A stretch of DNA of 64,000 nt, taken from a virus. Positions 55,500-56,054 of this stretch are shown here, piece by piece. Within the stretch, counting starts at the first letter, position 1, and each line of letters opens with the position of its first letter. The stretch lies in the UHGV virus genome UHGV-0133741, one strand, 5' to 3'. The position numbers were made by a program, and so were the translations under genes. The notes beneath the pieces were generated by a model, which was given only the letters and a program-made list of their open reading frames with translations, did not search any database and was not told where the DNA came from.

Positions 55500-56054
55500 T
55501 TGCAGCTAAAAGCCAGGAAGAATGGAATTATGACAAAATTTGGAAAGCTGGAAGCTCATTTGCTAACTCGTAACTACCGCCATGATATACATCCATATAG
55601 ACAGTGGATCGATGAAAGTGAAGGAGTAGTTACATTCCCTCTATACAGGTTTGATGGGATGTTGGCTGGGTATCAGACATATAGACCAGGTGCTCCTAAG
55701 CAGCATAGCAATCCGAAGATGGCCCGGTATTTCACGCGATCACACGGCAGACAGTTACTTTGGGGAACCTATCTTCCTTTAAAAGATGGCCCAATATGGA
55801 TAACTGAGTCTATTTTTAAGAGCGCAGCTGTACACAACGCGGGCGGCAATTCGTGGGCGCTGTTAGGTTCGACTTTCTCAGCAGGATTACGTCGTCAACT
55901 TGCGATGCTGCCGTATGACTTTCGTGTAATAGGTGACAATGATGCGGCTGGTGATTCACTTGTGAAGTCTTTCGGAAAAGGTTTTGTGGCCCCGGATCTT
56001 GACGAGCTACAACCACATGAAGTGTCTCATTTGATTTTTAGCCATAGCCAATAA
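55500..56054 (+). CDS. Toprim-like domain protein
   Basis: 184 aa; ...IWITESIFKSAAV...ALLGSTFSA...FRVIGDNDAAGDSL... matches the Toprim E...DxD pattern. Confidence 0.4.
   Translation: MQLKARKNGIMTKFGKLEAHLLTRNYRHDIHPYRQWIDESEGVVTFPLYRFDGMLAGYQTYRPGAPKQHSNPKMARYFTRSHGRQLLWGTYLPLKDGPIWITESIFKSAAVHNAGGNSWALLGSTFSAGLRRQLAMLPYDFRVIGDNDAAGDSLVKSFGKGFVAPDLDELQPHEVSHLIFSHSQ

Follow-up and report, generated by a model that had tools for sequence, protein, structure and literature searches.

DnaG-type primases are understood as machines of three parts, in which a catalytic domain is combined with a zinc finger and a helicase-binding part. The catalytic RNA-polymerase domain has been characterized structurally in DnaG (1DD9, 1EQN, 4E2K, 2AU3) and in gp4 of bacteriophage T7 (residues ~71-245; 1NUI), while Toprim domains are nucleases in RNase M5, OLD, GajA and AriB. 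In jumbo phages, split DnaG-type primases occur in which a catalytic protein is accompanied by a separate primase-type zinc ribbon (Iyer et al. 2021, PMC7824862). Here we analyze a plus-strand gene in UHGV virus genome UHGV-0133741, a stretch of 64,000 nucleotides (the window) that represents a P1-type phage-plasmid, in which humD, phd/doc, pdcB and lpa come after the locus. We find that the product, termed mini-primase below, is a complete DnaG/T7-type primase RNA-polymerase domain, consisting of the N-terminal subdomain and Toprim, and nothing else.

The open reading frame (55500-56054) opens with TTG at 55500, and the first-pass annotation, which was made from the sequence alone, described a 184-residue Toprim-like protein. 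The Toprim core is upheld, but the length is not, as translation almost certainly starts at ATG 55530, giving 174 residues. This start is preceded by a Shine-Dalgarno-like AGGAAG, and 174 residues is the annotated size in PhiR41_1 and in RefSeq plasmids ('toprim domain-containing protein'). Furthermore, in many other plasmids the homology opens at 55514, downstream of TTG 55500, which places ATG 55530 and its ribosome-binding site inside the conserved cassette and TTG 55500 outside it. Comparison with the PhiR41_1 copy revealed 27 nucleotide differences, with codon changes that are synonymous in 23 cases and non-synonymous in three, indicating that the gene is under strong purifying selection.

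The protein matches the PHROG 849 ('DNA primase') profile at positions 145-333 of 435 (E=1.5e-53). An AlphaFold2 model (predicted local distance difference test score 91.6, predicted template modeling score 0.87) is compact and contains all core elements, with ~25 residues preceding the first strand of the catalytic domain and ~15 residues following the last Toprim element. When this model was compared with the Protein Data Bank (PDB) using Foldseek, the best 37 matches were all primase domains of DnaG, T7 gp4 or T4 gp61, over 109-202 alignment columns. The top matches, which also include Twinkle, are primase domains aligned over the full length (148-166 of 174 residues) at an identity of only 13-21%, and nuclease-type Toprims (RNase M5, MksG) score lower and align with no more than the C-terminal ~90 residues. 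The Toprim fold, for which the first-pass annotation had proposed structure prediction as a check, is thus present. At the sequence level, a search of PDB sequences with the single protein gave no match, and DnaG was reached only by the family profile, which retrieved the RNA-polymerase domains of S. aureus, E. coli, P. aeruginosa and Aquifex DnaG with E values of 4e-4 to 8e-3, in an alignment that spans profile positions 17-139 and includes non-Toprim motifs, among them 'FPL..G.L.GY' and 'PK...NP' of the family. With hhalign, the family aligned onto residues 124-283 of the T5 replicative primase (E 2e-5); against the single T7 gp4 sequence the alignment was not significant (E 0.12), although the motifs were correctly paired. 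Searches of the protein against Pfam (0 families at E<=1), PADLOC (0 families at E<=10) and NCBIfam yielded no match.

An alignment of relatives down to 32% identity shows that G43, L45, G47, Q49, Y51, P62, Y67, F68, T69, W78, G79, E93, F96, G105, L120, D136, D138, A140 and G141 are invariant, and that at least 90% of the sequences retain K57, N61, R66, R70, D156 and E159. The most highly conserved block, GxLxGYQxYRPGAPK..NP..RYFTR...WG, precedes Toprim and constitutes the primase-specific N-terminal subdomain (DnaG motifs II/III), the putative nucleic-acid- and NTP-binding part, to which the basic residues K57, R66 and R70 belong. It corresponds to the DnaG motifs 'GFGGR / PKYLNSP / F-H-K...LYG', and the family profile aligns it to DnaG 4E2K, 1EQN and 1DD9 with E values of about 4e-4 to 1e-3, pairing with 'FPI..G..iGF', 'PKYLNSP' and 'F-HKG..LYG' and, within Toprim, with 'EGYMD' and 'DGDRAG'. 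The acidic residues pointed out in the first-pass annotation, the Glu of ITES and the DNDAAGD motif, proved to be Glu93, Asp136 and Asp138. Glu93 aligns with T7 gp4 'VVTEGEID' and DnaG 'EGYMD', and Asp136/Asp138 align with DnaG 'DGDRAG' and T7 'FDMDEAG'; the T7 gp4 counterparts are E157 and D207/D209. Judged by its position after the last Toprim strand, the D156-E159 cluster is likely to be the third acidic motif of DnaG-type primases.

Both its fold and its motifs thus make mini-primase a member of the DnaG/T7 gp4 primase catalytic-domain superfamily. It shares with T7 gp4 and DnaG the Toprim Glu, the DxD motif, the third acidic cluster and the N-terminal subdomain motifs 'PK....P' and 'F-x-[KR]...L-[WY]-G', and with 174 residues it is as large as an isolated T7 RNA-polymerase domain. 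Neither the zinc domain nor the helicase coupling of complete primases is present. The protein contains no Cys/His cluster and no match to Pfam Zn_ribbon_DnaG and, unlike T7 gp4 and DnaG, has neither a fused helicase nor a helicase-binding C-terminal domain, the next feature downstream being a terminator-like hairpin. The earlier statement that neither a primase zinc-binding domain nor a polymerase domain is present therefore holds for the former and fails for the latter, as the whole protein is a primase RNA-polymerase domain. Like the catalytic proteins of jumbo-phage split primases, mini-primase is a DnaG-like catalytic domain without a fused zinc ribbon; unlike those, it has no zinc-ribbon gene nearby (motif scan of the whole window), nor does one occur as a conserved neighbor of the homologues. 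PdcB/DUF968 was considered as a zinc-ribbon partner and rejected, as it carries Cys motifs but is unrelated.

The short form is the norm of the family and not a fragment: 172 homologue clusters (50% identity) were found with E<1e-30, and in most of the best 150 listed the proteins are 165-190 residues long end to end. The full-length gene is present in 60 of 5,426 complete E. coli genomes, where it is always plasmid-borne and never chromosomal, on plasmids of about 92-128 kb of the P1-like and SSU5-like phage-plasmid types. Species-representative bacterial genomes gave one match, on a contig of a metagenome-assembled genome, in a search with a single narrow peptide pattern that makes for weak evidence of absence. 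Using tblastn, the family was found in 489 phage records. Its members occur in T5-like, Jersey-like, jumbo and P1/SSU5-type phages and phage-plasmids.

One homologue (43% identity over the full length, E 6e-33) is T5.076 of phage T5, likewise of PHROG 849 and known in BF23 as 'ORF trn 2.1, putative DNA primase-related protein', which like mini-primase is a stand-alone protein (172 residues) with the same motifs. The viable strain T5Mos carries a deletion of T5 positions 30661-38625 (PMC11464382), and T5.076, located at 37279-37797, lies within it and is therefore dispensable. In addition, the full primase pri T5.121, which comprises a Zn ribbon (first ~120 residues), DNAG_N and Toprim, is encoded separately in T5, next to a DnaB-like helicase and a polymerase; together with the dispensability of T5.076, this makes the latter an accessory protein in T5. 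Similarly, Cornellvirus encodes a separate 'replicative helicase-primase' besides its homologue (46% identity). The settings differ in that T5.076, the gene of a virulent phage, stands at the head of a tRNA cluster and is served by a separate early promoter, P15a, whereas the gene in the window is the last of an ea-like array in a phage-plasmid of P1 type.

This array, on the plus strand, consists of small lambdoid 'ea-like' genes (Ea22, EaA, DUF551 and similar) and is highly variable in content among P1-like plasmids. It starts just past a pap-like HAD_PNKP phosphatase gene and takes the place of the P1 pmgT...hot/lxr segment; the position corresponding to mini-primase is occupied in canonical P1 by hot, plus lxr on the minus strand, and no orthology to a P1 protein of known function, which the first-pass annotation had raised, was found. 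The array is probably headed by a C1 operator located 4.85 kb upstream of the mini-primase gene, in a region (50640-50880) that is 98% identical to the annotated P1 operator/promoter region. The window contains 13 sites matching the C1 operator consensus (e.g. 14307, 16447, 34679, 50677, 63133) where 0.34 are expected, confirming a P1-type immunity circuit. Co-transcription of mini-primase from PpmgT over the 4.85 kb is suggested by this arrangement and, because the C1 operator and PpmgT-like promoters head the array, mini-primase is likely to be expressed early in lytic growth and repressed in the prophage.

The first-pass annotation had placed the gene in an operon controlled by both C1 and SOS. 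The operator makes the C1 part plausible, and the SOS part is not borne out: the intergenic region upstream of mini-primase contains no LexA box (CTGT-N8-ACAG), and the sole nearby LexA-like match, with one mismatch, lies inside the upstream coding sequence (55396-55411) and is of a quality reached by chance. In addition, the gene and humD are set apart by a terminator-like hairpin. The order in PhiR41_1 is mini-primase gene, hairpin, LexA box and humD start, so that the LexA box serves humD in the relatives; it lies upstream of humD in P1 as well, and is deleted in the window.

On balance, we consider it probable that mini-primase is an early-expressed accessory primase catalytic domain that has no zinc-binding part and catalyzes nucleotidyl transfer on single-stranded nucleic acid. 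Mechanistically, the protein would be made early in lytic growth, remain silent in the plasmid prophage, and perform Mg2+/Mn2+-dependent nucleotidyl transfer by which short oligoribonucleotides are made or extended on single-stranded nucleic acid. Since no zinc-binding domain reads the template, synthesis would proceed without sequence-specific template recognition and, in addition, without a helicase tether. The function would be auxiliary and, unlike that of T7 gp4 or DnaG, not the core priming of the replicon, and the candidate substrates are phage DNA, for auxiliary priming or for repriming, and the 3' ends of RNA or tRNA. A primase-type activity would be consistent with the links to replication found in other lineages. 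In Guernseyvirinae (Jersey-like phages) the homologue overlaps the stop of a SNF2 helicase gene at the end of an exonuclease-SSB-Mom-DNA polymerase operon, and relative P0130, alone among those whose N-terminal extensions were checked for zinc ribbons, carries an N-terminal DUF3268 zinc finger. Neighboring genes in other phages code for DNA polymerase I, a macro-domain protein and Dam (JA29), a DNA ligase (SYP) and an exonuclease (Atu_ph04).

Several points weigh against this interpretation. Template-directed primer synthesis by T7 gp4 and DnaG needs the zinc-binding domain, and the zinc-less 56-kDa form of T7 gp4 yields only random dinucleotides, so that a zinc-less domain may prime poorly unless template binding is contributed by a partner. 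The DnaG Asp located four residues past the Toprim Glu (EGYMD) is replaced by Lys97 in mini-primase (TESIFKS), although distant relatives retain Asp (EGIFDA); and the arginine of DnaG 'GFGGR' is not clearly conserved in the family. Co-transcription from PpmgT is uncertain, as a terminator-like hairpin (55180-55209) lies inside the array between the operator and the gene. About a quarter of the lineages adjoin tRNA or RNA-repair genes, not replication genes. Finally, a literature search on T5.076, primase-related proteins of tRNA regions and Toprim with CCA or RtcB retrieved no study of the family.

The alternative that survives best, which we nevertheless regard as unlikely, is an RNA- or tRNA-directed enzyme, in which the DnaG-fold domain would bind the 3' ends of RNAs such as phage or host tRNAs, or process them, together with a CCA-adding enzyme or RtcB, either in the maturation of phage tRNAs or in the repair of tRNAs cut by host immune nucleases, i.e., in counter-defense. 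Such a role has a precedent in archaeal DnaG, which is an RNA-binding subunit of the exosome. T5.076 heads its tRNA gene cluster at a distance of 42 bp from tRNA-Ser, and in lineages L038, L090/L138, L108/L115 and L146 the gene is surrounded by tRNA arrays. The homologue overlaps the end of a CCA-adding enzyme gene in Shewanella phage 1/4 and Vibrio phage F98, and in the Erwinia jumbo phage Deimos-Minion, where it is annotated in two pieces, RtcB comes immediately after it. Among longer relatives there are fusions to PolyA_pol/CCA-adding enzyme with either domain first (P0133, P0060), although some of these fusions may be gene-calling read-throughs; other fusions involve NMN-adenylyltransferase-like, Mom, HAD, Arr and ParB_N domains.

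IMG/VR and GenBank loci were grouped at 60% identity into 34 lineages, and the gene neighborhoods of these were surveyed by raw counts that carry no background rate. A tRNA gene lies within 1 kb in five lineages, a CCA enzyme within 3 kb in four and RtcB adjoins in one, so that nine of the 34 have at least one of these RNA-related neighbors. NAMPT and/or NadM-Nudix genes occur within 5 kb in four lineages (in one more at 7.6 kb), a SNF2 helicase gene adjoins in two, and about 18 of the 34 have none of the surveyed neighbors. Since these are raw counts, and as tRNA arrays, CCA enzyme, RtcB and NAD-salvage genes co-cluster in the accessory regions of large phages, adjacency may mean membership in an 'accessory island' only, and the RNA link is a lead rather than a result. 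Moreover, the Guernseyvirinae gene resides in a DNA replication operon, with no tRNA gene in the Jerseyvirus stretch examined, and the nearest tRNA genes in the window are about 18 kb away. The more far-reaching version of this idea, that the whole family including T5.076 is not a DNA primase but a repurposed DnaG-fold RNA 3'-end enzyme acting with CCA-adding enzyme and RtcB in the maturation of phage tRNAs or the rebuilding of tRNAs that host immune nucleases have damaged, seems to us less likely still. If true, the family would represent a new class of phage counter-defense or tRNA-repair factor, with the CCA-adding enzyme fusions in two orders as the 'Rosetta stone' of this idea.

We also think it improbable that mini-primase is a solitary Toprim nuclease that cuts DNA or RNA through a Glu/DxD metal site as a defense or anti-defense effector, as the first-pass annotation had suggested by analogy to Toprim/DUF4435 nucleases (OLD, Gabija, PARIS). 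The acidic residues of Toprim are intact, the primases are followed in the ranking of structural matches by RNase M5 and a small Toprim protein, and homologues elsewhere have established or likely counter-defense genes among their neighbors (NAMPT plus NadM-Nudix, Mom, Arr-like, macro domain, Lar). However, every OLD/Gabija/PARIS nuclease feature tested is missing. Mini-primase shares with OLD, GajA and AriB (DUF4435 type) the Toprim core with Glu and DxD and the location on a mobile element, but those nucleases are absent from its structural neighbors, which are all primase domains at the top, and lack the primase N-terminal subdomain that forms half of mini-primase and is the best-conserved part of its family. 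There is no profile match in Pfam, hence no DUF4435, nor in PADLOC. An ABC ATPase is neither fused nor adjacent, in agreement with the earlier statement that a partner ATPase is absent, the neighbors being small ea-like genes, two lipoprotein genes and humD. In RNase M5, considered together with small Toprims (6TG6, 6Z2B, 2I5R), Toprim is N-terminal and followed by an RNA-binding domain, whereas in mini-primase it is C-terminal, after the DnaG-type subdomain, and sequence similarity of the RNase M5 type is not significant (E 0.32). The probable C1-repressed promoter, in addition, makes a defense gene expressed in the lysogen unlikely. As a Toprim fold is present and no orthologous P1 protein of known function was found, the nuclease idea is redirected rather than refuted, and an anti-defense role of mini-primase is possible.

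Less probable still is a non-catalytic binder, either a decoy occupying sites on single-stranded DNA, SSB or the replisome, or a sponge for nucleotides such as (p)ppGpp, which binds the RNA-polymerase domain of DnaG (4EDK and related structures of the S. aureus protein). A small, early accessory protein with one domain would suit this role, as would the Asp to Lys exchange near the catalytic Glu in the subfamily of the window and the loss of DxD in a few relatives (P0070 'LLDGGAPGD', P0082 'CDSGFTH'), but the (near-)invariance of the Glu, both DxD Asp residues and the third acidic cluster is the pattern expected for catalysis. Lastly, a decaying fragment of a once full-length primase gene, which could be suspected from the match to only part of the PHROG 849 profile, the partial gene copies in many P1-like plasmids and phages and the truncated humD next door, is effectively refuted by the length distribution of the homologues and the substitution pattern, and also by the gene's own ribosome-binding site and terminator-like hairpin and the confident, compact model without missing core elements.

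The coordinates of the gene, its motifs and the flanking features are collected in the table.

Table. Features of the mini-primase locus in the 64,000-nucleotide window.
Feature	Position	Strand	Basis
C1 operator identical to P1 OpmgT/Op88, with PpmgT promoters	50677..50693	+	Operator search
Shine-Dalgarno-like AGGAAG, 9 nt before ATG 55530	55515..55520	+	Read from sequence
Mini-primase coding sequence, stand-alone DnaG/T7-type primase catalytic domain, 174 residues	55530..56054	+	
N-terminal subdomain block G43-G79	55656..55766	+	Family alignment, DnaG profile match
Glu93 codon, Toprim catalytic Glu (ITES)	55806..55808	+	Family-invariant; aligns to DnaG and T7 gp4
Asp136-Asn-Asp138 codons, Toprim DxD metal-binding motif (DNDAAG); Asp codons at 55935-55937 and 55941-55943	55935..55943	+	Family-invariant
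Asp156-Leu-Asp-Glu159 codons, third acidic cluster (putative)	55995..56006	+	D156 and E159 at least 90% conserved
Terminator-like hairpin (11-bp stem, 5-nt loop) followed by T-rich stretch, in mini-primase/humD gap	56067..56093	+	Consensus scan
humD remnant, a neighbor and not part of mini-primase	56133..56465	+	Alignment with P1, MH422554 and PhiR41_1

Downstream, mini-primase ends 79 bp before the humD reading frame, in agreement with its earlier placement just upstream of humD. The intervening hairpin is conserved together with the mini-primase gene in PhiR41_1, and a block of gene, terminator, LexA box and umuD' is common to P1-like and SSU5-like phage-plasmids. In the window, humD is a remnant from which ~136 aligned columns are gone, and with them the LexA box, the site of ribosome binding, the start codon and about 28 codons of the N-terminal part. 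The junction falls within 56095-56235, near 56148-56165, with about 14 unrelated bases, and occurs in one piece in no PLSDB plasmid; the 5' deletion thus appears private to the element of the window. The remnant could be a pseudogene, or its translation could begin at TTG 56133 or ATG 56163. A 'damage-tolerance cassette' of mini-primase and humD was considered and down-weighted, as two minus-strand genes separate the pair in pO111_2 and no other lineage ties the family to umuD. A 3' remnant of mini-primase (from about window position 55842) lies beside lxr/upf93.6-humD in MH422554 (L002), MH445380/1, SJ46 and ~85 E. coli plasmids, which suggests that in those P1-like elements the mini-primase arrangement is older and was broken by insertion of the lxr segment. 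In the SSU5-like phage-plasmid PhiR41_1 (L001 7378-9411) and L034, which carry the mini-primase-umuD block, a full methionyl-tRNA synthetase gene and a Mrp/ParA-like gene are found a few kb downstream.

Upstream, a perfect 14-bp palindrome, CTGCAATATTGCAG, is located at 55492-55505, at the edge of the conserved cassette, after the stop codon of the preceding lipoprotein gene and before the ribosome-binding site of mini-primase. Its spacing, CTG-N8-CAG, is not that of an E. coli LexA box, and it could be an operator or a small hairpin. Directly upstream are two small predicted lipoprotein genes (54663-55091 and 55215-55481) with the lipoboxes LIAC and VSGC, the second of which matches PHROG 7757. 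The strong terminator-like hairpin of the array, at 55180-55209, lies between the two, with a possible extended -10 element (TGCTAAAAT) near 55174-55182, and the lipoprotein pair occurs together with the mini-primase gene in only three plasmids. At the other end of the array, the pap-like gene before the C1 operator (50171-50674) encodes a PNKP-type HAD 3'-phosphatase domain (Pfam HAD_PNKP) and the third array gene (51454-52332) a member of the PAPS-reductase family; end repair or modification of nucleic acids is a candidate function of both.

Further observations concern the homologues. NAMPT and NadM-Nudix genes, an NAD+ salvage pair of the kind reported against NAD-depleting defenses, lie a few kb from the homologue in L076 (8588-10973), L090 (5718-7112), L096 (5099-7877), L102, L104, L112 and L114, and in the 994-residue relative P0078 a cytidylyltransferase-like (NMNAT-type) domain is fused upstream of the mini-primase domain. 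The homologue is present as two adjacent open reading frames, recovered as two tblastn pieces, in Deimos-Minion (gp49/gp50; L016 2908-3517) and in Dickeya phage JA29 (L099), which could be due to frameshifting, an intervening element or a truly split gene. The SNF2 helicase gene upstream of the Jerseyvirus homologue (L010 2515-4980) contains an intein with Hint and LAGLIDADG homing-endonuclease domains, and the Cornellvirus copy (L012 510-1958) is much shorter, at 482 residues.

The mini-primase family retains the catalytic domain of a DnaG-type primase alone, with an active site conserved under purifying selection. Database labels already exist for its members, either 'toprim domain-containing protein' or 'DNA primase'; they should not be grouped with the OLD/Gabija/PARIS nucleases, and the label 'DNA primase' should be used only with qualification. 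T5 and P1 offer easy test systems for the role of mini-primase. An auxiliary primase would show how a zinc-less catalytic core can be used, and an activity on tRNA or RNA ends would add a new counter-defense enzyme.

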